Shown: positions 1 through 26,523 of the stretch, piece after piece
How the letters are laid out: each line of letters opens with the position of its first letter
Position numbering within the stretch: position 1 is the first letter of the stretch
Assembly: GCA_014816205.1 (NCBI GenBank)
Contig: GCA_014816205.1_4096.1
DNA from: a phage
Direction: 5' to 3' (one strand)
Length of the DNA stretch: 28,420 nt
Translations under genes and position numbers: made by a program
The notes under the pieces: generated by a model
The model's input: only the letters and a program-made list of their open reading frames with translations
The model's database searches: none
What the model was told of the DNA's origin: nothing

Positions 1-255
1 TCATCGTCTGTTAAGTATTTCATTTTCATTTACTTTTTCCTTAATAGTGATTTTAAGATATCTAATCATACGTGCAACATATTCCTCTTGTCTATCAGTT
101 CCCAGAAGATATGGTAGTGATTGGAATAATACTTCTGCACTCCTTTCTGCTGGGGTTTGGTTTAGGTCAATTGGACGTTTATTGGTATATCTCTTGGCAC
201 GAACTAATCTCTCGACGTATTCATTATAGGTTAAGTATATCATTTCATTTTGCAT
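1..255 (-). CDS. small protein, tandem paralog family 1 (LGTNYQ-motif family)
   Basis: ORF track; ATG at 255 with AAGGA about 8 nt upstream; motif LPYLLGTDRQEEYV; start overlaps stop of next gene upstream. Confidence 0.6.
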   Translation of the reverse strand: MQNEMIYLTYNEYVERLVRAKRYTNKRPIDLNQTPAERSAEVLFQSLPYLLGTDRQEEYVARMIRYLKITIKEKVNENEILNRR

Positions 256-475
256 TTACTTTTTCCTTAATACTCATTATAAGATGTTCAATCATATTTT
301 GAACCATAAATTCTTGTTTATCAGTTCCAAGAACGTATGGTAGCTTCTGAAACAATACATTTGCAGATACTTCAGATATTGATTGATTTGGAACGAACTT
401 AAGAGTAATGTTTTTGGTTTTTAACATCTTCTCTTGAAATTCTTCATTCGTTAAGTATATCATTTCATTTTGCAT
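245..475 (-). CDS. small protein, paralog family 1
   Basis: ORF track; N-terminus MQNEMIYLT nearly identical to 1..255; motif LPYVLGTDKQEFMV. Confidence 0.6.
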   Translation of the reverse strand: MQNEMIYLTNEEFQEKMLKTKNITLKFVPNQSISEVSANVLFQKLPYVLGTDKQEFMVQNMIEHLIMSIKEKVNAK

Positions 476-691
476 TTACATTCTCTCATATATATTTTGG
501 GTTAAAAGGTCAATCCAGATTTCCACATATCGTTGTTGGTGTTGCGTCCCTAACAGTACACCCAACTTAGCTTCACACTCTAATAACAATCTGGTTTTGT
601 ATGGTAGACTTTGGAATCCTATAGTAGCATCTAATTTGGTAATTGCATAGTTGATTCGGATGAATCTTTCTTGCAATGTGATGTTGTTCAT
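476..691 (-). CDS. small protein, paralog family 1
   Basis: ORF track; motif LLGTQHQQRYV; ATGA stop/start overlap with 688.. gene. Confidence 0.6.
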   Translation of the reverse strand: MNNITLQERFIRINYAITKLDATIGFQSLPYKTRLLLECEAKLGVLLGTQHQQRYVEIWIDLLTQNIYERM

Positions 692-951
692 TTCTTAGTA
701 CACCTCAGTGGTTGGGTCATTTGATAAAAGTACAGCTTACCTTTGATTTCCAGTAGTAACTCCGCGATTAAGCGATTTACTTCTGTATCTTGATAGTTTG
801 TTCCTAAGAATACACCCATCTTTAACTCACGCATCATAATCATTTTCTTACTGTGTTGAATTTCTGGGTTGTGATAGATTGTATTACGTTTGTGCGTAAT
901 TTTTGTCATACGCTCGGTATATTCATCTTTACTTAAATTGATCATTTGCAT
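688..951 (-). CDS. small protein, paralog family 1
   Basis: ORF track 688..978 trimmed to internal ATG at 951 (track M1 is a TTG); GAGG 9 nt upstream; N-terminus MQMINLSKDEY matches family; motif FLGTNYQDTEV. Confidence 0.55.
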   Translation of the reverse strand: MQMINLSKDEYTERMTKITHKRNTIYHNPEIQHSKKMIMMRELKMGVFLGTNYQDTEVNRLIAELLLEIKGKLYFYQMTQPLRCTKK

Positions 952-980
952 GTTCATCAACCTCACATTTATTTTCAATA

Positions 981-1220
981 CTATTCTTTAGTTTGTAGAT
1001 ATAGTTTTCTTCCAATGTATCTCTTAAGTGCGATTATGTATTCATCTACATAATACTCCTGATAGTTTGTTCCTATGAATGCACCCACCTTTAACTCAAG
1101 TTTCATAATCATCTTATTTCCGTGTTTAATGACTTCTCCGTGATGGATTTCATTAAGTCCAGGTGCAATTTTCACCAGGCGTTCTTTATATTTTGCTTGA
1201 GATAATTTAATCATTTTCAT
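981..1220 (-). CDS. small protein, paralog family 1
   Basis: ORF track 981..1247 trimmed to ATG at 1220 (AAGGG upstream); N-terminus MKMIKLSQAKY; motif FIGTNYQEYYV. Confidence 0.55.
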   Translation of the reverse strand: MKMIKLSQAKYKERLVKIAPGLNEIHHGEVIKHGNKMIMKLELKVGAFIGTNYQEYYVDEYIIALKRYIGRKLYLQTKE

Positions 1221-1221
1221 G

Positions 1222-1452
1222 TTAATTACCCTTACATTTATTTTCAATACTATTCATGAGTTCTATAAGATAGTTTTCTACCTTACCTTCCTGATAGTTA
1301 GTCCCTAGGAAGTTGCACAACACGGCTTCTATGATTTTGATTTTCCTGATATCAGGCTTCAATCTTTTGTTATTGAATATTTGAATCCTTATATCTCTGG
1401 ATGCATTTAAACGTTTTTGATATTCATGGTAAGTTAAATGAATCATTTTCAT
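1222..1452 (-). CDS. small protein, paralog family 1
   Basis: ORF track; N-terminus MKMIHLTYHEY; motif FLGTNYQEGKV. Confidence 0.6.
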   Translation of the reverse strand: MKMIHLTYHEYQKRLNASRDIRIQIFNNKRLKPDIRKIKIIEAVLCNFLGTNYQEGKVENYLIELMNSIENKCKGN

Positions 1453-1667
1453 TTACGTTTAACCTCTCGCTGGAGGGCATCAATTAACATCAGTACAGCA
1501 TTCTCTTGATAGTTTGTTCCTAAGACTGAAAGCATCTTTATCTCATTTACTAAAATCAACTTCTTTGAGGGTTCAATAATGTGACTATCATAAACGGCCT
1601 TACGTGCTGGATAAGTTTTCGCCAGTATAACATAAAATTCGTCTTTACTTAAATTAATCATTTGCAT
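1449..1667 (-). CDS. small protein, paralog family 1
   Basis: ORF track; N-terminus MQMINLSKDEF; motif VLGTNYQENAV; ATGA overlap. Confidence 0.6.
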   Translation of the reverse strand: MQMINLSKDEFYVILAKTYPARKAVYDSHIIEPSKKLILVNEIKMLSVLGTNYQENAVLMLIDALQREVKRK

Positions 1668-1876
1668 TTACTTTTAACCTCTTTCTGTAGAGCGTCAATC
1701 CATAGATCTACATACATTTGTTGATAGTTTGTGCCTAAGAGTGCACCTACATAGAGTTCAGTTACTAGTGCGTGCTTAAGGTTAGCTTGGATGCTCTTAT
1801 CGCTTGATATCATTCTCCTTCTGCTTCCACATGTTTTCAGGAGTCTGATGTATTCAAAGCCTTGTAAATTTCTCAT
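1658..1876 (-). CDS. small protein, paralog family 1
   Basis: ORF track; motif LLGTNYQQMYV. Confidence 0.55.
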   Translation of the reverse strand: MRNLQGFEYIRLLKTCGSRRRMISSDKSIQANLKHALVTELYVGALLGTNYQQMYVDLWIDALQKEVKSKCK

Positions 1877-2088
1877 ATTTTGGATACCACCTTGTTACGT
1901 AAGGAACTTAATAATACGTCAGTGTAGATGTTTTGATAGTTTGTCCCTACGAATACACCCAACTTCATTTCAGCTATTATAACACATTTGTCCTCTTGTG
2001 CAATAGATTTGTTTAACACAATACTATACACTTTTGATTTGATAGTTTGTAACCTCCAATGATACTGATACTCATTAAGGATTATCAT
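1873..2088 (-). CDS. small protein, paralog family 1
   Basis: ORF track; motif FVGTNYQNIYT; ATGA overlap. Confidence 0.6.
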   Translation of the reverse strand: MIILNEYQYHWRLQTIKSKVYSIVLNKSIAQEDKCVIIAEMKLGVFVGTNYQNIYTDVLLSSLRNKVVSKI

Positions 2089-2335
2089 TCTCTTTCCTCC
2101 AGATTTCGGTTCTCATGTGTTGGCAGTGTGCATCAATATATTGCTCTATCGATCTGGCGATTGCTGTTTTATCAGTGCCTGTCATCAGTACAAGCATCTC
2201 GGCCTCACAGTGAAGTAAACGCATGATATCATAGGGTAATATTTCAGATACCGTGTCATAGTGTTTCTGTGCCAGTGTCTGCAATAGTTTACAATACATT
2301 TTGTGATTTAGTCTTTGTCGCATTGTTTCTTCCAT
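2075..2335 (-). CDS. small protein, divergent member of paralog family 1
   Basis: ORF track; degenerate motif LMTGTDKTAIARS; start uncertain (alternative ATG at 2323). Confidence 0.45.
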   Translation of the reverse strand: MEETMRQRLNHKMYCKLLQTLAQKHYDTVSEILPYDIMRLLHCEAEMLVLMTGTDKTAIARSIEQYIDAHCQHMRTEIWRKENDNP

Positions 2336-2580
2336 TCTCTTCTGGCTTGGCGGGTTTTATCTGATATTTCGTTTCTCAATGCAGAGATATATCGTAGAGT
2401 GAACAGTTCTTGATAGTTAGTCCCTATGAATTTATTAAGATATACATCAGCGTTGACGATATCAGCTTCACGGGAATTATAAAGTTTATTGTTAGTGCGA
2501 AGGGTGTTTAGAAGAGAGAAGAGGGCAGTCTGATACTCAGTGCTTGATAAAGTTTTCATATTTTTCCACAATTCGTTCAT
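2308..2580 (-). CDS. small protein, paralog family 1
   Basis: ORF track; motif FIGTNYQELFT; start uncertain (alternative ATG at 2559, MKTLSSTEY). Confidence 0.5.
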   Translation of the reverse strand: MNELWKNMKTLSSTEYQTALFSLLNTLRTNNKLYNSREADIVNADVYLNKFIGTNYQELFTLRYISALRNEISDKTRQARREWKKQCDKD

Positions 2581-2734
2581 TTAGTTTTATCTGTATAAGA
2601 TCCATTAGTTGTTCAAGATAATCGGTACAATATTTCTCTTGATATTGGGTTCCCACAAAGTACAGCAACCATAGCTCATGAACTTTAACTTTCATCTCGT
2701 TCCATGAAAGTGCATCGTCCGTCAAGTGTTTCAT
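2537..2734 (-). CDS. small protein, paralog family 1
   Basis: ORF track; motif FVGTQYQEKYC. Confidence 0.55.
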   Translation of the reverse strand: MKHLTDDALSWNEMKVKVHELWLLYFVGTQYQEKYCTDYLEQLMDLIQIKLNERIVEKYENFIKH

Positions 2735-2889
2735 TTACATTTATCCCTTATTAGATTTGTGAGTGCAACTATGTGTTCATGGATATAAAAATTTTGATGA
2801 GAAGTTCCAAGAAAGTACAGCATCCATCCCTCACTCTGCTCGACTTCTAGTTTAGTATCGAGTTGGTCAGATATGTTAATGAAAACCAT
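2731..2889 (-). CDS. small protein (52 aa), paralog family 1; absent from ORF track
   Basis: Hand translation codon by codon: MVFINISDQLDTKLEVEQSEGWMLYFLGTSHQNFYIHEHIVALTNLIRDKCK; ATG overlaps upstream stop; TGA overlaps start of 2537..2734. Confidence 0.5.
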   Translation of the reverse strand: MVFINISDQLDTKLEVEQSEGWMLYFLGTSHQNFYIHEHIVALTNLIRDKCK

Positions 2890-3113
2890 TAGTTCTTTTC
2901 CTTTCTTTCTATTTGTTTCATAAGAACATCGATATACTCACCCGCAAACCTATTCTGATACTGCGTCCCCATGAATTCCAACATCCATACTTCAGCAACC
3001 TTTTCTTCAATTTCAGTCCATTGTAAGTACATCATAGTGAAGTAAATGGTGTTCTCTTTTTTTCTGGCACTCTTAGCACGGGCCTCGTATTCAAAGTTAT
3101 TAATGATGTTCAT
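2889..3113 (-). CDS. small protein, paralog family 1
   Basis: ORF track 2889..3146 trimmed to ATG at 3113 (track M1 is a TTG); motif FMGTQYQNRFA. Confidence 0.5.
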   Translation of the reverse strand: MNIINNFEYEARAKSARKKENTIYFTMMYLQWTEIEEKVAEVWMLEFMGTQYQNRFAGEYIDVLMKQIERKEKN

Positions 3114-3327
3114 TACATTTGTCCATAATGTAATTCTTGAGTGCAACTATGTGTGCAATAACATACTCTTCCTGGAAGTTCGTCCCCAGTACAGCCAACA
3201 TGCGTACATCGGTGGTGTTTATCTTGTGTTCCAATCGAGTTAAACCTTTTATTTGTAAAAGGGTATCGTATTTGTTTAATGCATCAATGATAATTCTCAT
3301 CTTCTCAATATTACTTAAATGTTTCAT
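3100..3327 (-). CDS. small protein, paralog family 1
   Basis: ORF track; motif VLGTNFQEEYV. Confidence 0.6.
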   Translation of the reverse strand: MKHLSNIEKMRIIIDALNKYDTLLQIKGLTRLEHKINTTDVRMLAVLGTNFQEEYVIAHIVALKNYIMDKCNEHH

Positions 3328-3536
3328 AGTTTACTCTTAATGTAGTTCTGAAGTTCAATTAAGTATTTCCCTACATAATACTCCTGAAAGTCTGTATCCA
3401 AAAATGCACCCATAAGTAAATCCTTCTCCATTGCCCTTGATAAGTTAAGGTCTGCATTTGAAAGGTATATAAGTAATATTTCAGTCTGGACAGAATTAAA
3501 ACGTTTCTTATATTCTTCAGGTGTTAATATAATCAT
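3324..3536 (-). CDS. small protein, paralog family 1
   Basis: ORF track; motif FLDTDFQEYYV; ATGA overlap. Confidence 0.6.
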   Translation of the reverse strand: MIILTPEEYKKRFNSVQTEILLIYLSNADLNLSRAMEKDLLMGAFLDTDFQEYYVGKYLIELQNYIKSKL

Positions 3537-3748
3537 AATTTGCTCCTGATGTATTTCTCAAGAGATGACAAATACTTTTCCTCATAATACTCCTGATAGT
3601 CTGTTCCCAAGAATGCACCCAAAAGTATTTCATTTTCCAATACCTCGGCTAAGTTTAAATCAGACGTCTCTTCGTATATTATGAGGATTTCAAGTTGTCT
3701 GGCAGCGATGCGTTCAGTATATTGATATGAGTTTTCTATAATAATCAT
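3533..3748 (-). CDS. small protein, paralog family 1
   Basis: ORF track; motif FLGTDYQEYYE; close paralog of 3324..3536. Confidence 0.6.
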   Translation of the reverse strand: MIIIENSYQYTERIAARQLEILIIYEETSDLNLAEVLENEILLGAFLGTDYQEYYEEKYLSSLEKYIRSKL

Positions 3749-3954
3749 ATTTTACTCTTAATATCTTCTATTAAAAATCGAATCCATTCTTCAACATAAT
3801 CTTCCTGATGGTTTGTGTTCAGTACAGCCAACATGCGGATCTCTGCTCTTGCAACTTCAATTTCAGTTTTAGGCAGGTCTTTGCTGATATCCACCATTAA
3901 GTCCATGTATTTCAAGATAAGACCGTATGATTGGGTTCGTGTTATAGTTTTCAT
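3745..3954 (-). CDS. small protein, paralog family 1
   Basis: ORF track; motif VLNTNHQEDYV. Confidence 0.6.
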   Translation of the reverse strand: MKTITRTQSYGLILKYMDLMVDISKDLPKTEIEVARAEIRMLAVLNTNHQEDYVEEWIRFLIEDIKSKI

Positions 3955-4151
3955 TGTTTCCTCGTGGACAATATTTTATTTTTCAATGTATCCATATATT
4001 GCCACACCCATCTACCCTGATAGTTTGTTCCCAATGTAATCAAAAGGTATAACTCCATTCGTTCTACGTGTGTGTCTGTGTTGTAAATCTTTACGTAGTT
4101 TTTACGTAACAGTGATTGATATTCTTCTTTATTTAAAATACGCATTTTCAT
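3951..4151 (-). CDS. small protein, paralog family 1
   Basis: ORF track; N-terminus MKMRILNKEEY; motif TLGTNYQGRWV. Confidence 0.6.
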   Translation of the reverse strand: MKMRILNKEEYQSLLRKNYVKIYNTDTHVERMELYLLITLGTNYQGRWVWQYMDTLKNKILSTRKQ

Positions 4152-4345
4152 AGTTTACTCGTTATATCTTCAATTAAATACCAAATCCAATCGTTGACAT
4201 ACCTTTCCTGAAAGTTAGTTCCAATGAATAGTGCCATAATTAATTCACGCTTATAGGCAATACCACGGTCATGGGACTTATACATTATCATAGCCATGTT
4301 ATTGATAAGTCTTTCGTGGTGCTGTTCTTTAGTTAAAATACGCAT
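4148..4345 (-). CDS. small protein, paralog family 1; first gene of the array
   Basis: ORF track 4148..4375 trimmed to ATG at 4345 with AAGGGAG 5 nt upstream; motif FIGTNFQERYV. Confidence 0.6.
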   Translation of the reverse strand: MRILTKEQHHERLINNMAMIMYKSHDRGIAYKRELIMALFIGTNFQERYVNDWIWYLIEDITSKL

Positions 4346-4375
4346 AGGGACTCCCTTAAAATTAATATCAATCAT

Positions 4376-4403
4376 ATTTTATACGATTCATATAAAAAGT
4401 CAA
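4376..4403 (-). promoter_or_regulatory. sigma70-like promoter for the family-1 array
   Basis: Minus strand reads TTGACT, 16 bp, TAAAAT directly upstream of the first array gene. Confidence 0.45.
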
Positions 4404-4594
4404 TAACATTTTATTCGTAATACCCCTTTATCGAAGTCGCTAAGGTTACCCGCCCTTTAGCCCCCTACGCATTTTGCCATAGTCCAATCCCTTTTATTTC
4501 AAAAAAGTCAAGGGATTACCTATGCATTTTTTTAACGCATAATTTTAAAAACGCCTTGACTTTTTTCTGAATCAGTACTAGATCACTTTACGCA

Positions 4595-4804
4595 TTAATC
4601 CTTCGTTACGCTAACGATTATCTGTGTATCCCCGTAGTCCTGCCATACTTCCACGCCATCGGTCGCCCTGGTTAGTCGTGCTGTCATCTGCTTAATGGTC
4701 TTAGGCTTTAGTGGAACCTGTTGCAGTACTGTACGCATAGCATCATTGACGTTATCATGTACGCCTGCAATAGTACCTAGAACGCTGTATACTGTATAGA
4801 ACAT
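4595..4804 (-). CDS. hypothetical protein (69 aa)
   Basis: ORF track; AGGAGG 8 nt upstream of ATG. Confidence 0.6.
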   Translation of the reverse strand: MFYTVYSVLGTIAGVHDNVNDAMRTVLQQVPLKPKTIKQMTARLTRATDGVEVWQDYGDTQIIVSVTKD

Positions 4805-4829
4805 ATGTATGCCCTCCTGATATAGTTAA

Positions 4830-4847
4830 GGCCGCTACAAGGCGGCC
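4830..4847 (-). terminator. hairpin (GGCCGC/GCGGCC) followed on minus strand by TTAACTATAT
   Basis: Inverted repeat just downstream of the 4873.. gene; U-rich tail is weak. Confidence 0.35.
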
Positions 4848-4872
4848 TATGATGTTTGGTGATGTGTAACGC

Positions 4873-5274
4873 TTACAGTCCTAAGATAGTGCGTGCTTCG
4901 TTACGTTCCGTACACAGCTGCATGATGTGAGCAAGTAAGTCCTTGCTAATGTATCCGGTGTTCATAGCTTCACGAATAGATACATCATACGCACCGAACC
5001 CCGTGCGAACGATACGCACATCATTCAGGTTAGTATTATAGATACCGCCGAGATCAACGGCTTCGAATACTACATCAACAGAATATTCATTGTTGCCATC
5101 GTGGAAGTTTTCCAGTGCAATAGTATTGGATACCGCCCAACGTTTGCAGTTTCCAATGATGCGGCACTGTTCCGGTTGGATAGTACCATTACTTACAGCG
5201 TACTCCAGTGCATCTTTACCAAAAGTCCGAGCCAGTACTAAAACGTCAGCGAAGGAATTGATTGAGAAGGTCAT
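4873..5274 (-). CDS. hypothetical protein (133 aa)
   Basis: ORF track 4873..5307 trimmed to ATG at 5274 with AGGAG upstream; track N-terminus reads through the promoter cassette. Confidence 0.6.
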   Translation of the reverse strand: MTFSINSFADVLVLARTFGKDALEYAVSNGTIQPEQCRIIGNCKRWAVSNTIALENFHDGNNEYSVDVVFEAVDLGGIYNTNLNDVRIVRTGFGAYDVSIREAMNTGYISKDLLAHIMQLCTERNEARTILGL

Positions 5275-5363
5275 GATAAAACTCCTTAATTTAGGAGGGA
5301 GAACCATTTCCCCCTCTCTATGTAAAACATTATACTTGATTCTAAGTACTATGCAAGTACTTT
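5275..5363 (-). promoter_or_regulatory. PeSL-like cassette: promoter (TTGCAT...TATAAT), leader hairpin, RBS
   Basis: RC of atgcaa at 5351-5356 and attata at 5329-5334; GC-rich inverted repeat about 5296-5316. Confidence 0.5.
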
Positions 5364-5696
5364 TTACATTTTAATACCTGGATTCAGATAGCGGTGAGAA
5401 CCATATTCTGGATCGGTTTCGGTCCAGTACTGTAAATCGATAGTACCTTTCGCGTTAATCTTGTCTACCAGCTTATTCATCTTAGCGTATACTACGTCAG
5501 CATCGATGCGTTTAAAGCCAGTAGCTTTAGTGAAGTAGTAGTGATTTGCTTCACTATCATTAAGGATATACCGAGCACCGTTTGCAGTCTGTGCGATAAT
5601 GATTGAGTATTCTACTTCCCGATCCAGACCGTCGATGAATACAGATGAAACATTGGTACGGATGAAAGCTTTAACGATAGCGATTGAAGTACTCAT
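5364..5696 (-). CDS. hypothetical protein (110 aa)
   Basis: ORF track; AGGAG upstream of ATG at 5696. Confidence 0.6.
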   Translation of the reverse strand: MSTSIAIVKAFIRTNVSSVFIDGLDREVEYSIIIAQTANGARYILNDSEANHYYFTKATGFKRIDADVVYAKMNKLVDKINAKGTIDLQYWTETDPEYGSHRYLNPGIKM

Positions 5697-5844
5697 TTTG
5701 AATCTCCTAACTTTGTGGACCGTCGCACCATTGCCGCCCTACGAGATACATTATTGCAGTACTGATATACTTTGTCAATACTTTTTATTAATAGTTTTCA
5801 CTCCACCAGCAGATAGTTACTCACCGTTATTAACTATATATTTT

Positions 5845-5930
5845 AGATACACCTATGCACCCTGTGGGCTAGTTTTTGTCTATGCGTATATAATAGCAAA
5901 GGGACTGACCGGAGTCAATCCCTTTTTTAT
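5845..5930. repeat. composite intergenic repeat, copy 1 (19-nt motif + terminator hairpin)
   Basis: tgcaccctgtgggctagt about 5857-5874; hairpin gggactgaccggagtcaatccc 5901-5922 followed by tttttt. Confidence 0.6.
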
Positions 5931-5939
5931 TCTTTTTTG

Positions 5940-6140
5940 TTAGATGATTCTCCAATCTTCTACGATGATTGTAAGATACCGGACCAACGATTCTAGTGAT
6001 TCGTGTTCTCGATAGTCTGCCGCTCCACCAGCGGTACAAGTACAGCCGATTAAACCATTTTGCAATTCCTTAATCTGTACATCGATAAGGTTGGCTTTAG
6101 CTTCTTTCAGTACTTCAACCAGGGCGAGAGCGATAGACAT
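5940..6140 (-). CDS. hypothetical protein (66 aa)
   Basis: ORF track; GGAG upstream. Confidence 0.55.
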   Translation of the reverse strand: MSIALALVEVLKEAKANLIDVQIKELQNGLIGCTCTAGGAADYREHESLESLVRYLTIIVEDWRII

Positions 6141-6230
6141 AATGTTTTACTCCAAACTATTGGCGGGAGAACTATTCCCCCGCTCTATGTAAAACATTAT
6201 ACATTACTGGTTAGTACTGTCAAATAGTTT
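6141..6230 (-). promoter_or_regulatory. PeSL-like promoter/hairpin cassette
   Basis: Minus strand TTGACA, 16 bp, TATAAT, then hairpin GCGGGGGAATAGTTCTCCCGC. Confidence 0.5.
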
Positions 6231-6488
6231 TTATGAAATATCTTCGATGTAGTCGGCCCATTTCATTTTTTCAGTACTGTCAATTGCTACCGGATTATTT
6301 GGATCAAACCATTCACCATTACCGCAGTACATACCAACGGCAACGGTTTTATAGCCATCCTGGGCAGTACTCCACGCCATCGCACGATAGATATGGCCTT
6401 TAACTGGTTGCAGTACTGGTAACGTTTTATGGTCTTCTACGTAGGCCATAGCTTGAGGATTTACCCGATATTGTGTGAATTGTTCCAT
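6231..6488 (-). CDS. hypothetical protein (85 aa)
   Basis: ORF track 6231..6521 trimmed to ATG at 6488 with AGGGGA upstream. Confidence 0.55.
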   Translation of the reverse strand: MEQFTQYRVNPQAMAYVEDHKTLPVLQPVKGHIYRAMAWSTAQDGYKTVAVGMYCGNGEWFDPNNPVAIDSTEKMKWADYIEDIS

Positions 6489-6563
6489 GATGTTTCCCCT
6501 TGTAGTTAGTAAAGTTATCATATCAGTACTATCAAGCTATGTCAATAGTACTGAAATAAAACT

Positions 6564-6788
6564 TTAGATTAGATTATTGATGCCGTTGATGGTAGACTCG
6601 CTTTCTTCTTTCTCCCATTGGCGGTAGTACTTCCATGCTTCATGATATGTGGCGATTAGTTCATCTTTTTGATCCTGAGTACATGCCAGTACTGAATCAC
6701 GATGAGCGGTGTTATAGATAGAATCGAATGATTTCTTCTCTTCTGCCAGGTTAGCTACTTCCCGCATCAGTTCATCAAAGTTAGCCAT
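6564..6788 (-). CDS. hypothetical protein (74 aa)
   Basis: ORF track; AAGGAG upstream; starts MA. Confidence 0.6.
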   Translation of the reverse strand: MANFDELMREVANLAEEKKSFDSIYNTAHRDSVLACTQDQKDELIATYHEAWKYYRQWEKEESESTINGINNLI

Positions 6789-6852
6789 TTTAGTACTCCT
6801 TTTAGTGGGGGAGGATATCTCCCCCTATGCAAAACATTATACTTTGTTTTAG
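6789..6852 (-). promoter_or_regulatory. PeSL-like promoter/hairpin cassette
   Basis: Minus strand TTGCAA...TATAAT then hairpin GGGGGAGATATCCTCCCCC. Confidence 0.5.
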
Positions 6853-7119
6853 TTACTTTGCAAGTACTTTTTTCATATAAAGATTATATTCTACACCGCC
6901 GTAACCTTCTAAGATGATATGTTTTGCGTTATCACGTTTGCACATAGTGAAACCGTTGTTGATGTGTTCTGCATTTTCCAGGGCTACATCACCGATTGCA
7001 GCACATACAGCACTTACAACGGTATTCCGCAAAGTACTGGTATCATTAGCGGTCATAGTAGTTTGCAGTACTACGTTGTCGTATACGTGTGCATTGATAG
7101 TGATTTCGATAGTGTTCAT
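6853..7119 (-). CDS. hypothetical protein (88 aa)
   Basis: ORF track. Confidence 0.55.
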   Translation of the reverse strand: MNTIEITINAHVYDNVVLQTTMTANDTSTLRNTVVSAVCAAIGDVALENAEHINNGFTMCKRDNAKHIILEGYGGVEYNLYMKKVLAK

Positions 7120-7205
7120 GGTGTATCTCCCGGACTGGCGGGAGAACTATTCCCCCGCTCTATGTAAAACATTATACGTTAATCTAACTACAATGCAAGT
7201 ACTTT
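7120..7205 (-). promoter_or_regulatory. PeSL-like promoter/hairpin cassette
   Basis: gcgggagaactattcccccgc hairpin plus RC of TATAAT and TTGCAT. Confidence 0.5.
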
Positions 7206-7397
7206 TTAAATTTTATTTCCGATATAGTCCGGTCTATTCTTTTCGGTCATACGCTTTGCTAATGTTTGCATATGGCTTATTGCGTTTAATGTGTCTTCCT
7301 CCAGGGATGAATCAACATAATCAGGATCATTCTTAACCTTGCAATGGTTATGATAGCGTAGTACTGCCAGTACTTTTTTAACTTCTTCAACTGTCAT
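7206..7397 (-). CDS. hypothetical protein (63 aa)
   Basis: ORF track; ATGA overlap with 7394.. gene. Confidence 0.55.
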   Translation of the reverse strand: MTVEEVKKVLAVLRYHNHCKVKNDPDYVDSSLEEDTLNAISHMQTLAKRMTEKNRPDYIGNKI

Positions 7398-7666
7398 AAT
7401 AAGTATTCCACTTCGTTAGCTTTCAGGTTAGTATCAATCATCAGTGGATTTTTGTAGTTCACAAAACGATTAGTTTTCTCGATAGCGAATCCCATATAAT
7501 CCAGCTTACTAACAGTACATTCATTCTTAAAAACTTCTTTCGCTGCATTGATGGCTGATTCAATTGATAACCGACCATCTAAGTTAATGTTTCCAAATGA
7601 TCCACCAGCAGAAGTAGGATTACCGTTCATATCTTTAATGATCATAGTAGCGGAGTAGCTAGACAT
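7394..7666 (-). CDS. hypothetical protein (90 aa)
   Basis: ORF track. Confidence 0.6.
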   Translation of the reverse strand: MSSYSATMIIKDMNGNPTSAGGSFGNINLDGRLSIESAINAAKEVFKNECTVSKLDYMGFAIEKTNRFVNYKNPLMIDTNLKANEVEYLL

Positions 7667-7750
7667 AATTTTGTTTCCTTTTAGTATCGGGGAGAACTAT
7701 TCTCCCCTTGATGTAAACTATTATACAGTACTAAGATACTTTGTCAATAC
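7667..7750 (-). promoter_or_regulatory. PeSL-like promoter/hairpin cassette
   Basis: ggggagaactattctcccc hairpin; minus strand TTGACA, 16 bp, TATAAT; 3' part shared with cassettes at 10524 and 10795. Confidence 0.55.
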
Positions 7751-7972
7751 TTAATTACGTTTAAAATGATATGTGCCTTTATCATCCTGTACGCCCCATA
7801 CTGATTTACCATCAACACCAGTGAAACCGGATTGTAATTCAATATGGAAACCATTATTATCAACTACAAAAACTTTTTTATTTTCATCCCGATAACATTG
7901 ATATTCTGAATCAACATTAAAGGCCGCATCATTCAGAAGATTGGAAGCGTAAATGCAAGTCATTGTAGTCAT
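7751..7972 (-). CDS. hypothetical protein (73 aa)
   Basis: ORF track 7751..8047 trimmed to ATG at 7972 with AAGGA upstream; track N-terminus is the translated hairpin. Confidence 0.55.
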   Translation of the reverse strand: MTTMTCIYASNLLNDAAFNVDSEYQCYRDENKKVFVVDNNGFHIELQSGFTGVDGKSVWGVQDDKGTYHFKRN

Positions 7973-8107
7973 GATTTTATTCCTTATTGCCAGGGAGAAC
8001 CATTTCCCCCTCTCGATATAAAACATTATACTTGATTCTAAGTACAATGCAAGTACTTTTTATCAAATACTTTAAAATAGTTTTCAGTACTGAATACTTA
8101 TATAATA

Positions 8108-8197
8108 GATACACTTATGCACCCTGTGGGTCAGTGAGTTATCTCTCAATGAATATATATTAGCAAAGGGACTGACCGGAGTCAATCCCTTTTTTAA
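8108..8197. repeat. composite intergenic repeat, copy 2
   Basis: tgcaccctgtgggtcagtg 8118-8136; hairpin gggactgaccggagtcaatccc 8168-8189 plus tttttt. Confidence 0.6.
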
Positions 8198-8203
8198 TCT
8201 TTT

Positions 8204-8788
8204 TTATCGTGTTATAGTTACGGCTTTTACATCACGCTTTTTATAGTACTGATTCCAGATATTGCGGGTTAAACCGTAATCAAGTACTTTAATAAGTCCA
8301 TTACGATCCTGGCCGATATTCTGTTTTCTGATATCTCTTATCGTTAGTGTTGATAATGTATCATCGACGTGTTGTAGTGCATCAGCAAAGCGGTGCTGGC
8401 GTTCAATGGCATTACGTTTAATATTGTACTTTAATTCGTTGCACGCGTTAACGTGCTTCACACTGCCTTTACTTGCAGTACTCAACCGATCCATAACGAT
8501 AAACATATTATCAGGATCGCATAAATGCATATGCACCTTTGCAAAGTACTGTTTCAATTGAGGGCGGTCATAGTCTAAAAAATTCCATACCTTACATTCA
8601 GTTTCATTTTGTTCTACACCCGCATCACAATTGGCGACCTTAATCACTAACCGATCATTTAAAGCGAATACAATACGGGAAGAACCCGCACCGATGATCT
8701 CCAGACCAGCTAACCGACAAGCTGAAAGGATCTCTTTGTTGGTTTCCATTTCTGACAGGGTACGGATGAATTTAGTATAATTACGCAT
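8204..8788 (-). CDS. minimal protein-kinase-like protein (194 aa)
   Basis: ORF track 8204..8845 trimmed to ATG at 8788 with AAGGAG upstream; motifs IGAGSSRIVF (Gly loop), VIKVA (Lys), IRDIRKQNIG (catalytic loop), KVLDYGL (DFG-like). Confidence 0.55.
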   Translation of the reverse strand: MRNYTKFIRTLSEMETNKEILSACRLAGLEIIGAGSSRIVFALNDRLVIKVANCDAGVEQNETECKVWNFLDYDRPQLKQYFAKVHMHLCDPDNMFIVMDRLSTASKGSVKHVNACNELKYNIKRNAIERQHRFADALQHVDDTLSTLTIRDIRKQNIGQDRNGLIKVLDYGLTRNIWNQYYKKRDVKAVTITR

Positions 8789-8819
8789 TGCATGTTCTCC
8801 TTGAGTTAATGAAACTATC

Positions 8820-9062
8820 TTACAGTACTTTACTATCAATGGCAACCACTTTTTTCACACTAACCGCGTGAATCACTTCCTTAGTGTTTTTAGTACTGAA
8901 TACTTTCGCTGTTCCATGTTCTACTGCAATGCGATAACGACCGTTAACATCAACCATATTAATAAAGTCCGGTGTACTAAACCGAGTAGTACGGCATTTC
9001 AGTACTGTTAACAGTTCCACCAGCGATGTAGTTTCTTTGATACGTTTTTCTAAAGTAATCAT
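8820..9062 (-). CDS. hypothetical protein (80 aa)
   Basis: ORF track 8820..9119 trimmed to ATG at 9062; track N-terminus MTVLKCF... is the translated promoter region. Confidence 0.55.
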   Translation of the reverse strand: MITLEKRIKETTSLVELLTVLKCRTTRFSTPDFINMVDVNGRYRIAVEHGTAKVFSTKNTKEVIHAVSVKKVVAIDSKVL

Positions 9063-9119
9063 TTTGTTTTCCCCGTGTTGGTATGTACATATAGTACTAA
9101 AACATTTGAGTACTGTCAA

Positions 9120-9338
9120 TTAGATAATTGCATATTTCTTTAAAGATAATGCGTCTTGGGTTGGCTGATACTCAATGCCGTTACCGTTATCTACTTTAAC
9201 TAATAAACCTTTGTCAATTAGTTTTTTAATAGTCCTTTGGCCTTGTTGAAAATTGGTAAAATGTGAATCATTACGAAAGGTATAACCGTGCTTAACTGCT
9301 TCATCAATAGTTTTCTTTTCGATTTTAGATAATTTCAT
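9120..9338 (-). CDS. hypothetical protein (72 aa)
   Basis: ORF track 9120..9395 trimmed to ATG at 9338; same promoter-module artefact as 8820 gene. Confidence 0.55.
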   Translation of the reverse strand: MKLSKIEKKTIDEAVKHGYTFRNDSHFTNFQQGQRTIKKLIDKGLLVKVDNGNGIEYQPTQDALSLKKYAII

Positions 9339-9391
9339 TTTGTTTCTCCCGTGTTGGTATGTGTACATAATACTAAAACAATTGAGTACTG

Positions 9392-9646
9392 TCAACGTGA
9401 TATTAGTTTTATTTTCTTATTATATTGTTGATGTTCATAAAGGTTTATCTTTCCTGTGTTCTCTATTACTATTCTGTTGTTAGTGTCTACATCGATTACA
9501 CGCAGTTTTCCGTTGCTTAACTTCCTTGGTAATAGGTTACCATTAATAAACTCATTAGCAAGCTGTACGGCCTTTGTGATGATTCTCTGTGGTGCTTTAT
9601 AGTGTACCCGCAAGATATTATCTTTAGATAGTTGTACCTTAATCAT
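9392..9646 (-). CDS. hypothetical protein (84 aa)
   Basis: ORF track; AGGAT upstream. Confidence 0.55.
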   Translation of the reverse strand: MIKVQLSKDNILRVHYKAPQRIITKAVQLANEFINGNLLPRKLSNGKLRVIDVDTNNRIVIENTGKINLYEHQQYNKKIKLISR

Positions 9647-9661
9647 TTTAGTTTATCCTAT

Positions 9662-9686
9662 AAAAAAGGCGGGAACTGATCCCGCC
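9662..9686 (-). terminator. rho-independent terminator
   Basis: Hairpin ggcgggaactgatcccgcc 9668-9686 followed on minus strand by TTTTTT; immediately downstream of 9709.. gene. Confidence 0.65.
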
Positions 9687-9708
9687 GTGTTGTTAGTACT
9701 GCAAGTTA

Positions 9709-10104
9709 TTAGATAACCTGGCGGCGTTTACTGTATACTGTTACACGATTACCCTTACGGTCGTGTCGGATCTCTTTCTGGTTGCGTACCAGTTCACTTG
9801 GACGCTTAAGGTTTGCCAGGTGATCCGCGTGAGTCCAAGCGGTATGGTTTGTCTGTACTTTGATATCAGAATCAGCGATAAATTCATCTTGTGCGTTAAG
9901 TACTGCCGCCAGTAAATCCGCTCGTTTTAGTTCTGCTGCTGTTAGTACTGGCTCCGGTGAATTCACAATATCAGAGATTTCTTTGAACTGTACGGCCCAG
10001 CGTTGGCCTTTCGGTGCATCTTTGCCCATGTCTTTAAATGCTGCTCCTTCCTCGCGTGCAACAATACGGGCAGCTTCACGGGTAGCGTAGAATTTAGTAA
10101 TCAT
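9709..10104 (-). CDS. hypothetical protein (131 aa); paralog of 22751..23014
   Basis: ORF track trimmed to ATG at 10104 with AGGA 8 nt upstream; shares KFYATREAARI...FKDMG and RKGNRVTVY with 22751 gene. Confidence 0.6.
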   Translation of the reverse strand: MITKFYATREAARIVAREEGAAFKDMGKDAPKGQRWAVQFKEISDIVNSPEPVLTAAELKRADLLAAVLNAQDEFIADSDIKVQTNHTAWTHADHLANLKRPSELVRNQKEIRHDRKGNRVTVYSKRRQVI

Positions 10105-10199
10105 GGTATACATCCTATTAGTTAAGTTAGTACTACAAGTTAGAGTCTATTATAAAGTACTATCTGGGCAATGTCAAATAGTACTTTAAATGGATTCTA

Positions 10200-10523
10200 T
10201 TACATATCTTTCTTACGTTTTACATCGTAGTATCGAACTGTTATTTCTTTGTTAATCTCTTTTTCGATGCGGTGAATAACTTTTTCTTTCGGGTTGAAAC
10301 CTATAACGGTTTCTTTAATGATCTCCAAGCCCGTGTATTCGCCTTGTGTGCCGTAACCGTATGTAAAGGTTTCATGTCCCAGGTCTTCCCAACGATCACC
10401 AATTAACGCAGACACGTAGCAAGAGTGGTAAGTATTGCCGTGTGAATCAGTCCACCGATTAACTTTAATGTCAAAGGAGGTTACAATTTTCAGTTCTACT
10501 TTCTGGGCAAGGATCATAGCCAT
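10200..10523 (-). CDS. hypothetical protein (107 aa); paralog of 16617..16940
   Basis: ORF track trimmed to ATG at 10523; shares RWTDSxGNTYHSC and FTYGY and KRKKD with 16617 gene. Confidence 0.6.
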   Translation of the reverse strand: MAMILAQKVELKIVTSFDIKVNRWTDSHGNTYHSCYVSALIGDRWEDLGHETFTYGYGTQGEYTGLEIIKETVIGFNPKEKVIHRIEKEINKEITVRYYDVKRKKDM

Positions 10524-10616
10524 TTTTATTTCTCTCTCTTTGTTAGGAGGGGAACCGTTTCCCCTCACTTGATGTAAACTATTATACAGTACTAAGATAC
10601 TTTGTCAATACTTATT
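10519..10616 (-). promoter_or_regulatory. PeSL-like cassette, near-identical direct repeat of 10790-10886
   Basis: About 95 bp matching the cassette at 10790-10886 except in the hairpin arms. Confidence 0.6.
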
Positions 10617-10794
10617 TTTTGGAAAGTTTACGCATTAATTCTACGCTTTCTTGTGAACGTTTTGCTACCTGGCAAGCTGCATGGACAGTAAACATTTTTG
10701 TATAGTCTGACGGTTTGTCACCGAACCGAGCGGCACGTTCACGGGCACTTGGAACTAATACGATTTCTTTCTTACAGATAGTGCATTTAGCCAT
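10612..10794 (-). CDS. small Cys-containing protein (60 aa), possible zinc-binding
   Basis: ORF track; CTIC...HAAC pattern. Confidence 0.5.
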   Translation of the reverse strand: MAKCTICKKEIVLVPSARERAARFGDKPSDYTKMFTVHAACQVAKRSQESVELMRKLSKK

Positions 10795-10886
10795 TTTTAT
10801 TTCTCTCTCTTTGTTAGGAGGGGAACCATTCCCCCTCTCGATGTAAACTATTATACAGTACTAAGATACTTTGTCAATACTTAATT
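10790..10886 (-). promoter_or_regulatory. PeSL-like cassette, direct repeat of 10519-10616
   Basis: Minus strand TTGACA...TATAAT, hairpin GGGGAATGGTTCCCC, leader AACAAAGAGAGAGAAATAAAAATG. Confidence 0.6.
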
Positions 10887-11156
10887 ATTGTAAATGTCGT
10901 GAATAGTGATAAAGTTTTTACGACCGTAAACCTGCAAATCAATATCAATGTAGTGCTTATCTAGTACATCCTCGACGCTTAACGCGGTGTCGTGGATATC
11001 TTCGTAGAATTGAGGATCTACAATCTTGCTTAAGTCATCCGGCGTTAACTCATCGTTAAGCCGTTGAACCGCCTGGATATCTGCTTCACGTTTCCAGTCT
11101 TCCAGGTTAGTAGTCAGTACTTGTTCGATTTCGTTAGCTGTCAGTAGAATCCGCAT
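10881..11156 (-). CDS. hypothetical acidic protein (91 aa)
   Basis: ORF track. Confidence 0.55.
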   Translation of the reverse strand: MRILLTANEIEQVLTTNLEDWKREADIQAVQRLNDELTPDDLSKIVDPQFYEDIHDTALSVEDVLDKHYIDIDLQVYGRKNFITIHDIYNN

Positions 11157-11225
11157 TTTAATGTTTCCTTATCAGTGGTTGATGTAAGTATTATACTCGT
11201 TTACTTTCTATTGTCAAACTATTTT

Positions 11226-11298
11226 ATCAGGGGAGGTTTTCTTATGTCTTACTCCTGGACTACTTAACGGGGTTACTTGTTTCGTTCCCCGTCCTGAT
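11226..11298 (-). promoter_or_regulatory. structured leader element, copy 1
   Basis: Closing stem ATCAGG/CCTGAT enclosing hairpin ACGGGG...CCCCGT; sits between two tandem minus-strand promoters. Confidence 0.4.
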
Positions 11299-11379
11299 GT
11301 AAAACATTATACTTGATTCTAAGTACAATGCAAGTACTTTTTTAAAAATAGTTTTCAGTACTAGCCACCAGCAAACAAT

Positions 11380-11466
11380 AGATACATTTATGCACCCTGT
11401 GGGCTGATTTGTTTCTATGCGTATATAATAGCAAAGGGACTGACCGGAGTCAATCCCTTTTTCAAT
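11380..11466. repeat. composite intergenic repeat, copy 3
   Basis: tgcaccctgtgggctgatt 11391-11409; hairpin 11436-11457 plus ttttt. Confidence 0.6.
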
Positions 11467-11471
11467 TATTT

Positions 11472-11621
11472 TTAAACTTGTTTCGGGTTGCGATAGGTGA
11501 TAGCGTTCGGGTACATTTGTTTAATGTTATTCCATGCCTGGTTAACATTGTAACCACTTGAGCGAATCAGTTGGTTGCTACCGACACCTTGAAACACTAC
11601 TTCGAATAAGAATTCTTTCAT
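11472..11621 (-). CDS. small protein (49 aa), absent from ORF track
   Basis: Hand translation codon by codon: MKEFLFEVVFQGVGSNQLIRSSGYNVNQAWNNIKQMYPNAITYRNPKQV; start overlaps upstream TGA. Confidence 0.45.
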   Translation of the reverse strand: MKEFLFEVVFQGVGSNQLIRSSGYNVNQAWNNIKQMYPNAITYRNPKQV

Positions 11622-11791
11622 GCTTTCACCTCGCTATCTGCTTTACCTTTACGCCAGGACATTACTAATTGTTCGCGTTGCCATAAGTCGAGTGATACAA
11701 AAAGTTTTGCGGTATCACTTTTAGGATACTCGCCATTAGTACCTAACCGATAAAACAGATCTTTCAGTACTGATAATTCTACTTGAATCAT
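11618..11791 (-). CDS. small protein (57 aa), absent from ORF track
   Basis: Hand translation: MIQVELSVLKDLFYRLGTNGEYPKSDTAKLFVSLDLWQREQLVMSWRKGKADSEVKA; ATGA overlap with upstream gene. Confidence 0.45.
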   Translation of the reverse strand: MIQVELSVLKDLFYRLGTNGEYPKSDTAKLFVSLDLWQREQLVMSWRKGKADSEVKA

Positions 11792-11880
11792 TTTATTACT
11801 CCTGATTGCGTTAATACTTCTACTATTGCATGAATGATCATAAGTACAGCTAAAACAATAATCATCGGATTCATTTGCAT
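11788..11880 (-). CDS. small hydrophobic peptide (30 aa), absent from ORF track
   Basis: Hand translation: MQMNPMIIVLAVLMIIHAIVEVLTQSGVIK; AAGGAG 8 nt upstream; first of three coupled small genes. Confidence 0.4.
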   Translation of the reverse strand: MQMNPMIIVLAVLMIIHAIVEVLTQSGVIK

Positions 11881-11897
11881 AAGCTGTACTCCTTATA

Positions 11898-12110
11898 TTA
11901 ATCTTTCAGCCAATGATCCTGAATGAATTTTTCGCCGGAACCTTGCTGCATTGTTTGTAACAGACGTTCACGATGAGCGGCGGCGAATTGCTCAGTACTA
12001 TGCGTTACGCCAGGCTGATAACGTGATACCCCATCCGGTCCGATGTATTGTACATCCCACGGTTTAGCGTTAGTATCAGACCATTTACGAACGATTAGTT
12101 GACCTTGCAT
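11898..12110 (-). CDS. hypothetical protein (70 aa)
   Basis: ORF track; GAGAGGAAAG upstream. Confidence 0.6.
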   Translation of the reverse strand: MQGQLIVRKWSDTNAKPWDVQYIGPDGVSRYQPGVTHSTEQFAAAHRERLLQTMQQGSGEKFIQDHWLKD

Positions 12111-12195
12111 TTTTCTTTCCTCTCAGTGGGGAGAATCATTTCTCCCCTTCATGTAACTTATTATACAGTACTATAATCTATTGTCAAATACTTTT
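12111..12195 (-). promoter_or_regulatory. PeSL-like promoter/hairpin cassette
   Basis: ggggagaatcatttctcccc hairpin; minus strand TTGACA...TATAAT. Confidence 0.5.
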
Positions 12196-12384
12196 TTAAA
12201 GTTTATGAATCAATTCTTTATCTAAGCGATAGCGTACATTATTAATGGTAACAGCATTATTTTTAATGCTACGCTGTACAGGTCCACCAGCAATAACAAA
12301 TGTTGCTTTATTACCCCGAACAATGATAGCACTTCCAGGATTACCGAAATCATCTTGTACTAAAATACTTGATAAGTTTTCCAT
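12196..12384 (-). CDS. hypothetical protein (62 aa)
   Basis: ORF track 12196..12390 trimmed to second ATG (12384), which has GAGGA at proper spacing. Confidence 0.55.
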   Translation of the reverse strand: MENLSSILVQDDFGNPGSAIIVRGNKATFVIAGGPVQRSIKNNAVTINNVRYRLDKELIHKL

Positions 12385-12462
12385 TTTCATTTCCTCTTAG
12401 TAGGGGAAGATGTTTCCCCTTGATGTAAGTACTATAACACTACTGAAAACTAAATGCAAGTA

Positions 12463-12819
12463 CTATGATAAAATCATGATAGGATATTCACTATCGATCA
12501 GTACCTCGAATCCGAAACCTTCGTACCATTCTTTAAGATTGAAGGCGTTATCTTCTCCTGTATCGCATTCTAAAATGATACAATCTGAATCATCGGCGGC
12601 ATCAATAAAGGCATTCATTAATTCGTTACCTTCACCATTGCCCCGACTATCAGGATCAACATAAAGAGAATCAATAAACGCTACACGGTCATAATCAAGA
12701 TCCGGTGCAATGATTCCACGTTTAACAAACCAGTACTGCAATTGTGCTACTTTGCCCTGTACTTGATAACCAGTGATCTCGCCATTGTCAGTAGTACGCG
12801 TGATATGTTGTATTCCCAT
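12463..12819 (-). CDS. GNAT-family acetyltransferase-like protein (118 aa)
   Basis: ORF track; RGNGEG resembles the acetyl-CoA-binding motif and WYEGFGFE the C-terminal GNAT motif; GAGGA upstream. Confidence 0.5.
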   Translation of the reverse strand: MGIQHITRTTDNGEITGYQVQGKVAQLQYWFVKRGIIAPDLDYDRVAFIDSLYVDPDSRGNGEGNELMNAFIDAADDSDCIILECDTGEDNAFNLKEWYEGFGFEVLIDSEYPIMILS

Positions 12820-12882
12820 GATTTCTATCCTCAGTTAAGATATAAAACATTATACACTATCTTTCAGTACTGTCAATACTTT

Positions 12883-13140
12883 TTATCTCATAGATCTATG
12901 CCAACAATTACGCGGGGGACGTTTAAAAGTACTATCATGATCCTCCTGGCAAGTTATGCAGTACTTACATCCCTTAACGGCCTGGCGTCGTTTCTCAGGG
13001 ATTATATCGCCGCAGTCGAGGCAATGTATCAGTGATTCTATTTGTGCGTTAATTTGCTTTCTAGCGTGGTTAACGGCGGCCTGAATCACTGCGTTGATCT
13101 CGTCTTGTTCGGCCCCGTCTTTCGCGTATCCTACTGCCAT
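12883..13140 (-). CDS. TraR/DksA-family C4 zinc-finger protein (85 aa)
   Basis: ORF track; CLDCGDIIPEKRR...CKYCITCQ matches the CxxC-x17-CxxC TraR/DksA zinc-finger pattern. Confidence 0.55.
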   Translation of the reverse strand: MAVGYAKDGAEQDEINAVIQAAVNHARKQINAQIESLIHCLDCGDIIPEKRRQAVKGCKYCITCQEDHDSTFKRPPRNCWHRSMR

Positions 13141-14595: not shown

Positions 14596-14937
14596 TTATT
14601 CGAAATCTTCTGGACCGGACTGATAATCATCTTCACCGTATGCACTTTCTAACCGCTCGCCAGTTTGATCATCAGTTAGTGAGTCATCCTCATAGTTCAC
14701 GTCTACGCCTACAATGTAAAACTGGCTATCGTCTGGATCATTGAAATTAATTTTCTGAATGTTTACAATAACTGTATTGATGCCCAGGACACAGCCATCA
14801 GCCGTTACAAAGTACTGATATTTTTCACAACCGCCTGAATTGAAACCGTAATTGATTTCGGCCCGACCATCATTTAAACGCAGTGCCTGAGCGATGATTT
14901 CGTTTTCAAAGTTAGATTGAGCAATTGAGATAGTCAT
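14596..14937 (-). CDS. hypothetical protein with acidic C-terminus (113 aa)
   Basis: ORF track; AAGGA upstream. Confidence 0.6.
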   Translation of the reverse strand: MTISIAQSNFENEIIAQALRLNDGRAEINYGFNSGGCEKYQYFVTADGCVLGINTVIVNIQKINFNDPDDSQFYIVGVDVNYEDDSLTDDQTGERLESAYGEDDYQSGPEDFE

Positions 14938-25938: not shown

Positions 25939-25953
25939 AGTATTCTCTATTAA

Positions 25954-26136: not shown

Positions 26137-26141
26137 ATTAG

Positions 26142-26327: not shown

Positions 26328-26328
26328 A

Positions 26329-26514: not shown

Positions 26515-26523
26515 ATTGTTCTC

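Follow-up and report, generated by a model that had tools for sequence, protein, structure and literature searches.

The window analysed here, a 28,420-nt stretch of phage DNA (contig GCA_014816205.1_4096.1), carries on its minus strand an open reading frame (ORF, 8204..8788) for a 194-aa kinase-like protein. We conclude that this is a real gene whose product belongs to the kinase-like superfamily as a divergent and uncharacterised member, and we are highly confident that it has a kinase fold and active site. It is probably an early host-directed phosphotransferase. In the interpretation that we favour, with moderate confidence, the protein is an active, constitutively 'open' minimal phosphotransferase, made at the start of infection, which phosphorylates host (or co-injected phage) proteins. 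That it acts specifically as a protein kinase on host proteins is, in our judgement, about an even call.

The kinase assignment is already public, and our result confirms the existing database annotation. Current labels are 'protein kinase domain-containing protein' (ph0011), 'PknA' (Turkey3), 'PRP4' (fEgEco12), 'putative protein kinase' (Salmonella phage Munch, SE_PL, Klebsiella phage Muenster and fENko-Kae01) and 'protein kinase' (Klebsiella phage K64-1, RefSeq); UniProt L7TKF0 is also a kinase-like entry. The 36%-identical Muenster homologue carries an independent annotation, 'putative protein kinase; HHpred 6J5T_M 99.9%'. The paper on phage Sharanji describes its orthologue (gp063, WNN14351.1) as a second protein kinase of function not known. 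New here are a high-confidence structural model, a family-wide conservation pattern with non-canonical positions, a view of how large and how varied in architecture the protein family phrog_4301 is, and the exclusion of membership in the RIO/Bud32 and T7K families.

Megablast matched the region to the Asteriusvirus jumbo phages (slurp01, PBECO4, 121Q, G17, phAPEC6 group) at 93–99% identity, and by its sequence the window is assigned to Asteriusvirus jumbo phage DNA of the PBECO4/121Q/phAPEC6 group (E. coli host, ~350 kb). The protein is 100% identical to phAPEC6 gp500c and to the slurp01 and UB proteins. Its tblastn matches are confined to Rak2-like phages of ~350 kb, which infect Escherichia, Salmonella, Klebsiella, Erwinia, Xanthomonas, Yersinia and Pectobacterium. 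Across seven Asteriusvirus orthologues, pairwise ratios of nonsynonymous to synonymous substitution (dN/dS) are 0.01–0.18, indicating purifying selection and therefore a functional gene. The mechanical ORF reaches back to a TTG at 8845. The length of 194 aa, which had been given in an earlier note on this DNA, is nevertheless right, because all homologues begin at MRNY; read from the sequence, the ATG lies at 8786–8788 and a Shine–Dalgarno sequence, AAGGAG (8797..8802, minus strand), is placed 8 nt upstream of it. No further copy of the kinase-like domain was found in the window. In phage CMSTMSU (MH494197.1, 1201–1778) the orthologue is unannotated and interrupted by several frameshifts. We did not count this as gene loss, as the record is flagged UNVERIFIED_ORG and sequencing error is likelier than a pseudogene.

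Active site and fold of the 194-residue protein

Conservation was counted over an alignment of 91 diverse homologues that are 19–45% identical to the window protein. The five motif strings quoted in the earlier note are all present, in canonical order and spacing: IGAGSSRIVF (aa 32–41), VIKVA (48–52), NETECK (61–66), IRDIRKQNIG (150–159) and KVLDYGL (167–173). R38, K50, Q60, E64, G159, D170 and G172 are invariant, and G35, S36, S37, V48, A52, G57, N61 and D152 are conserved in ≥90% of the sequences. The residues for ATP (the Gly-rich loop, V48 and K50–E64), metal (N157, D170) and base (D152) are conserved across the family, and the Hanks-type features of beta3 Lys (K50), helix-C Glu (E64) and DFG Asp (D170) are kept in 91/91.

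The Gly-rich loop, G33-A-G35-S36-S37-R38 (8675..8692, minus strand, as for all motifs given here), is placed between beta1 and beta2 in the structural model. It keeps the first two glycines of GxGxxG (G33, Gly in 71 and Ser in 15 sequences; G35, in 87), followed by S36 (90), S37 (82) and, at the third Gly position, the invariant R38. The ATP-anchoring K50 (8639..8641; 91/91) sits in V48-I-K50-V-A52 on the beta3 strand (47–52 in the model). Helix C (55–73) carries Q60-N61-x-x-E64 (8597..8611), with Q in 91/91, N in 90/91 and E in 91/91. E64 is the Glu that pairs with the beta3 Lys, and Q60 with N61 is a signature specific to the family.

The catalytic loop, D152-I-R-K-Q-N157 (8318..8335), had been described as D-x-K-x-x-N, which needs correction: the residue at D+2 is Arg (R154), replaced by Ser in close orthologues and not conserved across the alignment (R21/K17/V12/H10). 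The His of H-R-D-x-K-x-x-N is likewise absent, while D152 (90/91) and N157 are present. The DFG equivalent is D170-Y-G172 (8273..8281), a putative metal-binding motif with D in 91/91, Y in 77 and F in 13, and G in 91/91. Profile–profile alignment (hhalign) of the 91 sequences with PKA gave a probability of 83% (E = 8.9e-6) and paired D152 with D166, R154 with K168, N157 with N171 and D170 with D184; the distance from D152 to D170, 18 residues, equals that between D166 and D184 of PKA. The catalytic Asp and Lys on which the kinase proposal had depended are thus retained (K50 91/91, D152 90/91, D170 91/91).

Evidence for the fold from sequence alone is weak yet consistent. The Pfam Pkinase model (PF00069) scored the single sequence at 17.9 bits against a gathering threshold of 31.7 (E = 0.0022), and gave weak matches in just 7/12 close homologues. 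A phmmer search of the PDB with the window protein retrieved only kinases (best E = 0.013). The family profile retrieved nearly all kinases, MKK4 being the best (E = 1.9e-4) and haemoglobin alpha accounting for 2/60 among the matches listed. The NCBIfam search returned nothing meaningful. Matches to the PADLOC model of the defence kinase PD-T4-6 were weak (best E = 2e-4) and were read as generic kinase similarity. A local HMMER alignment of the N-lobe to MKK7, which puts K50 four residues off the VAIK Lys, was also rejected, because of the strand assignment in the model and the conservation of K50 in 91/91.

The structural evidence is strong. With 12 close homologues, AlphaFold gave an unusable model (predicted local distance difference test, pLDDT, 49), and the alignment was rebuilt with the 91 diverse sequences; AlphaFold2 (AF2) then gave a kinase fold at pLDDT 95.1 and predicted template modelling score (pTM) 0.90. 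In this model extra helices at aa 4–12 and 17–26 precede an N-lobe made of beta1–beta2 with the G33-x-G35-S-S-R38 loop, beta3 (V48-I-K50), helix C and beta4/5. Only half a C-lobe follows, comprising helices D and E, the catalytic loop (152–157), beta7/8, DYG and a short helix (175–182). The chain stops at residue 194, 22 residues past DYG, so that the protein is indeed unusually small, as had been noted; these last residues (8207..8272) hold the short helix and an aromatic pair, Y181-Y182 (Y182 in 77/91). Hanks subdomains VIII–XI are missing, and the predicted structure is without an activation segment, an APE/P+1 loop and helices F–I.

Foldseek matched the model to kinases, aminoglycoside phosphotransferase (APH) enzymes and SAICAR synthase in the PDB, which together with the AF2 model bears out the kinase-like fold that had been proposed. 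The best matches are aminoglycoside 2''-phosphotransferases and the Legionella kinase Lpg2603, at query template modelling scores (TMq) ≤0.47 and identities of 14–20%. These enzymes are ~100 residues longer, with substrate-binding C-terminal subdomains that are missing in the window protein, and no Pfam match to APH, Kdo or choline kinase was found for the protein at E ≤ 10. Judged by the model, no solved family appears to be a close relative. Among viral models, T7-type 'protein kinase' entries reach TMq 0.56–0.57.

The earlier note set the protein beside the RIO/Bud32-type kinase fold. The absence of an activation loop and a D-x-x-x-x-N loop without the D+2 Lys are common to both, which is not proof of membership; no RIO1 or Kdo-type Pfam match was found in the window protein (E ≤ 10) or in 12 homologues (E ≤ 1), and RIO/Bud32 proteins are not its closest structural neighbours. 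Nor is the protein a family-level relative of T7 gp0.7 (T7K), which that note gives as an example of a phage kinase. The window protein does not match phrog_2828, the family of T7K, at E ≤ 1; it belongs to phrog_4301 and has DYG (Y77/F13 of 91) where T7K has DPV (PMC13645617), and it is without the C-terminal shut-off/DNA-binding domain of gp0.7.

Could the protein be a pseudokinase without catalysis, with binding as its mode of action (as a scaffold, a decoy or an inhibitor of some host protein)? Minimal kinase folds are able to act independently of catalysis, as in NleH, whose binding of RPS3 does not depend on its kinase activity (PMC12756638), and the sub-threshold Pkinase score would fit. 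However, the catalytic residues are all invariant or nearly so over sequences only 19–45% identical to the window protein, unlike the pattern of pseudokinases, and we consider this explanation very improbable.

Location in the terminal-repeat region and a probable early role

The orthologue in vB_Ec-M-J lies within the annotated direct terminal repeat of 21.5 kb, with which window positions ~4444–25493 are collinear, and the homologues in Muenster and fENko-Kae01 lie within terminal repeats predicted by PhageTerm. All genes inside the terminal-repeat region point from the terminus inward. Gene layout differs across its boundaries: inside ~4444–25493 the genes are small and lie apart from one another, each having a promoter and a 5' untranslated region of its own, and outside (245–4375 and 25747–28338) ORFs of ~60–90 aa are tightly packed and overlapping.

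A consensus scan found eight perfect TTGACA-N16/17-TATAAT sigma-70 sites on the coding (minus) strand within 9 kb (window 4000–13000), at 12876–12849, 12187–12160, 11217–11190, 10877–10850, 10608–10581, 10177–10149, 7747–7720 and 6223–6196. Overall, promoter-like sites in the scan numbered 42, where 31 would be expected by chance. The kinase-like gene's own promoter-like site is weak; the nearest strong upstream site, TTGACA-17-TACTAT (9091..9119, minus strand), was detected by consensus scan only. This site probably drives an 80-aa ORF (8820–9062) and the kinase-like gene, which are separated by 31 nt, on one transcript.

The terminal-repeat location and the consensus sigma-70 promoters make an early host-directed role plausible. 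A part in host takeover or anti-defence is further suggested by three neighbours in the terminal-repeat early region, all on the minus strand: a DksA/TraR C4 zinc-finger protein (12883–13140; PF01258, E = 1.5e-10), a small GNAT acetyltransferase (12463–12819; PF00583, E = 4e-9) and an 84-aa protein with a ParE-like toxin domain (9392–9646; PF24732, E = 6e-11). The adjacent DksA/TraR and GNAT proteins are candidates for modifying host transcription or proteins of the host. The layout of the window is similar to that of phages SPO1 and T5, which have host-takeover modules in their terminal redundancy. We also count towards a host-directed context the domain copies in a tape-measure-type protein and the family members in structural modules (see below). 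Early host-directed action would be the most economical reading of the position and promoter layout.

In the mechanism that we propose, the gene would be expressed early behind sigma-70 promoters and its product would then phosphorylate host proteins, in the service of host takeover or anti-defence. Without an activation loop, the enzyme would not be regulated by loop phosphorylation. As the APE/P+1 loop and helices F–I are missing, there would be no canonical peptide groove; substrate choice would have to depend on a different surface, on oligomerisation or on a partner, as it does in other minimal kinases, and the family-specific cluster of R38, Q60 and N61 may add to it.

Active kinases of this build exist. 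The effectors OspG and NleH are active without subdomains VIII–XI, and OspG and NleH1/2 have the same architecture as that modelled here, ~190–200 aa with an N-lobe, catalytic loop and DFG and no activation segment or helices F–I (PMC12756638). Like the window protein in our interpretation, they come from an invader, which delivers or makes them for action inside the host cell, although there is no detectable homology or close structural match between them. The Pseudomonas syringae effector HopBF1, whose protein kinase fold is described as atypical and minimal and which has HSP90 as its substrate, is also small, of limited similarity to eukaryotic kinases, and resembles aminoglycoside phosphotransferases (PMC9950578). 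It too has no detectable homology to the window protein and is not among the best structural matches, and its client mimicry of HSP90 is without a shown counterpart here. T7 gp0.7, a promiscuous early kinase that counters host defence (PMC13645617), remains our model for a role in anti-defence or takeover; it has in common with the window gene a phage kinase fold and a place in an early region read by host RNA polymerase.

Several observations weigh against this interpretation. The Pkinase score is sub-threshold and the Foldseek scores to solved structures are all ≤0.47. Protein kinases typically have a Lys at D+2, which is absent here. The metal-binding Asn, present in the window protein, is replaced by His, Ser, Gln or Thr in 63/91 sequences (~70%; H44/N28/S10/Q5/T4 at position 157), and the invariant G159 aligns with L173 of PKA, a residue of the catalytic spine (C-spine). 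The placement of R38 and G159 on PKA positions is read from alignments; if it is correct, the altered positions 157 and G159 may mean that nucleotide binding or chemistry is non-canonical. The early timing is deduced from position and promoter consensus. Our literature search found no functional study of the phrog_4301 family. Finally, a separate T7K homologue has been reported elsewhere in the genomes of these jumbo phages, in G17 and Munch; that T7K-type enzyme could be their main host-directed kinase.

Recent work has shown phage kinases, as with T7K, to be anti-defence weapons of broad action, and according to the literature the Rak2-like jumbo phages have a second, unrelated kinase-like gene in the DNA that enters the cell first. 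Its substrate would tell whether phages make general use of minimal kinases that have no substrate-binding lobe, and how they choose targets. It would also show whether these phages of E. coli, Klebsiella and Salmonella, which are relevant to therapy, work with two layers of phosphorylation.

The phrog_4301 family and other possible activities

The only significant PHROG match of the window protein is phrog_4301 (PHROGs v4, 'unknown function'; E = 7.9e-42, residues 3–188). With annotated members of this family the protein has in common its length, its motifs and a place in the terminal repeat. Ten diverse relatives match phrog_4301 alone, and no Pfam family was found among the phrog_4301 members checked. 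An exhaustive profile search retrieved 2,065 cluster representatives (50% identity) at E ≤ 1e-3, 248 of them at E ≤ 1e-10. The median single-domain member is 225 aa long, and 30 of the 279 family proteins fetched (11%) consist of 2–4 domain copies in tandem.

Gene neighbourhoods vary across the family. Members in Rak2-like contigs belong to small early-gene arrays; elsewhere one directly follows a major capsid gene, another lies between neck and sheath genes, and in two related contigs members adjoin genes for Pnk-like (AAA_33), NUDIX and Rnl1 (T4 RNA ligase 1) proteins. In the contexts examined, we found no partner gene that was conserved. Some members are parts of larger proteins. The kinase-like domain occurs twice inside a tape-measure-type protein of 3,248 aa (P0134, PhageMin_Tail), and once in a protein of 2,130 aa (P0111) together with a GNAT domain (weak Pfam match), a 2H phosphoesterase and a CCA-adding enzyme. 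Six metagenomic proteins (P0021, P0023, P0028, P0030, P0032 and P0036) hold 3–4 tandem copies of the minimal domain; in P0021, P0023 and P0028 each copy retains, by eye, the GSSR, K, QN..E, D and DYG motifs. Such 'poly-kinase' chains are unusual.

These neighbourhoods and fusions bear on the substrate. The enzyme might use the same ATP site to phosphorylate something other than protein (a small molecule, a nucleotide, an RNA end or an envelope sugar), the truncated C-lobe providing an open pocket. APH, RIO and Kdo-type kinases typically have a D-x-x-x-x-N loop without the D+2 Lys, as the window protein does. The AAA_33 polynucleotide-kinase-like, NUDIX and RNA ligase neighbours and the fusion to a 2H phosphoesterase and a CCA-adding enzyme point the same way. 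Yet this RNA-repair neighbourhood is confined to one lineage (plus the one fusion protein) and is not seen in the Rak2-like phages. The lack of APH, Kdo and choline-kinase matches in Pfam also argues against it, as does the model, in which the chain ends after DYG and the helical substrate-binding subdomain of APH is absent. We regard a non-protein substrate as unlikely.

The unusual pocket, with R38 for the third Gly, G159 at the C-spine position and H/N/S at the metal position, could instead belong to a partner-dependent ATPase or switch, or to an enzyme of another nucleotide transfer such as AMPylation, in the manner of Bud32, RIO, COQ8 or SelO. COQ8 is described as a kinase-like ATPase (PMC13418538). 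The modelled absence of a peptide-binding lobe would suit such an activity, and the 2–4-domain arrays that make up 11% of the fetched proteins suggest domain–domain assemblies. Against this, the base D152 and the K/E/D set are conserved as expected for phosphotransfer, and a partner-dependent activity is not matched by any conserved partner gene in the contexts examined; we consider it less probable than a kinase with a non-protein substrate. Phosphorylation of host proteins by a minimal phosphotransferase remains our favoured interpretation.

A wider and more speculative proposal, which we think has a small chance of being correct, concerns the family as a whole. phrog_4301 might form a large class, confined to phages, of pared-down kinase-fold enzymes that phages put into the host right as infection begins, with a possibly non-canonical activity or substrate. 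Among its members are proteins encoded in terminal repeats, others built into tape-measure proteins or located among structural genes, and others again arranged in 2–4-domain arrays. The altered pocket may give phosphorylation of nucleic acids or nucleotides, an AMPylation-like transfer, or partner-activated and hyper-promiscuous phosphorylation of proteins. The activity would be distinct from, and complementary to, that of the T7K-type kinase reported in the same jumbo phages.

Neighbouring genes and repeated promoter elements

As in the window, three metagenomic relatives and Muenster have a ParE-like homologue upstream of, and on one strand with, the kinase-like gene; in Muenster it is annotated as a YafQ-like toxin. 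No antitoxin was identified. A toxin–antitoxin pairing of the two genes was considered and rejected, as their spacing ranges from 4 nt to 2.4 kb with intervening genes and the ParE-like gene is absent near the homologue in a 34%-identical relative. We read the arrangement as inherited synteny of the early region and not as an operon. Farther upstream, a 113-aa ORF (14596–14937, minus strand) appears by gene order to correspond to a vB_Ec-M-J gene annotated 'DNA ligase'. This label looks doubtful, because the ORF has no Pfam match at E ≤ 0.01 and a ligase would be very much longer.

The stop codon of the kinase-like gene is followed directly by a 95-nt repeated element (8111..8205, minus strand) with the hairpin AAAGGGATTGACTCCGGTCAGTCCCTTT, in which a TTGACT-17-TAATAT promoter-like site is embedded. 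From its sequence, the element is probably a terminator/promoter junction. It belongs to a repeat family (D3) of three copies, at 5844–5938, 8111–8205 and 11379–11473, with 64–89% identity to the reference copy. The copies have the hairpin AAAGGGACTGACCGGAGTCAATCCCTTT followed by a T-run on the plus strand, and the hairpin embeds TTGACT-17-TATTAT on the minus strand (TAATAT in the 8111–8205 copy). The element could be a fusion of a bidirectional terminator and a promoter.

Two 93-nt promoter/leader regions, at 9059–9151 and 9335–9427, are 76% identical and adjoin the small genes at 8820–9062 and 9120–9338. Because these leaders are alike, both mechanical ORF translations open with MTVL(K/N)CFS...YQHG; the longer ORFs annotated in some relatives (fEgEco12) are probably wrong. 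The perfect sigma-70 promoters sit in further repeated modules of 37–88 nt with a GC-rich hairpin (families D1, D2, D4 and D5), which look like a duplicated early promoter/leader cassette.
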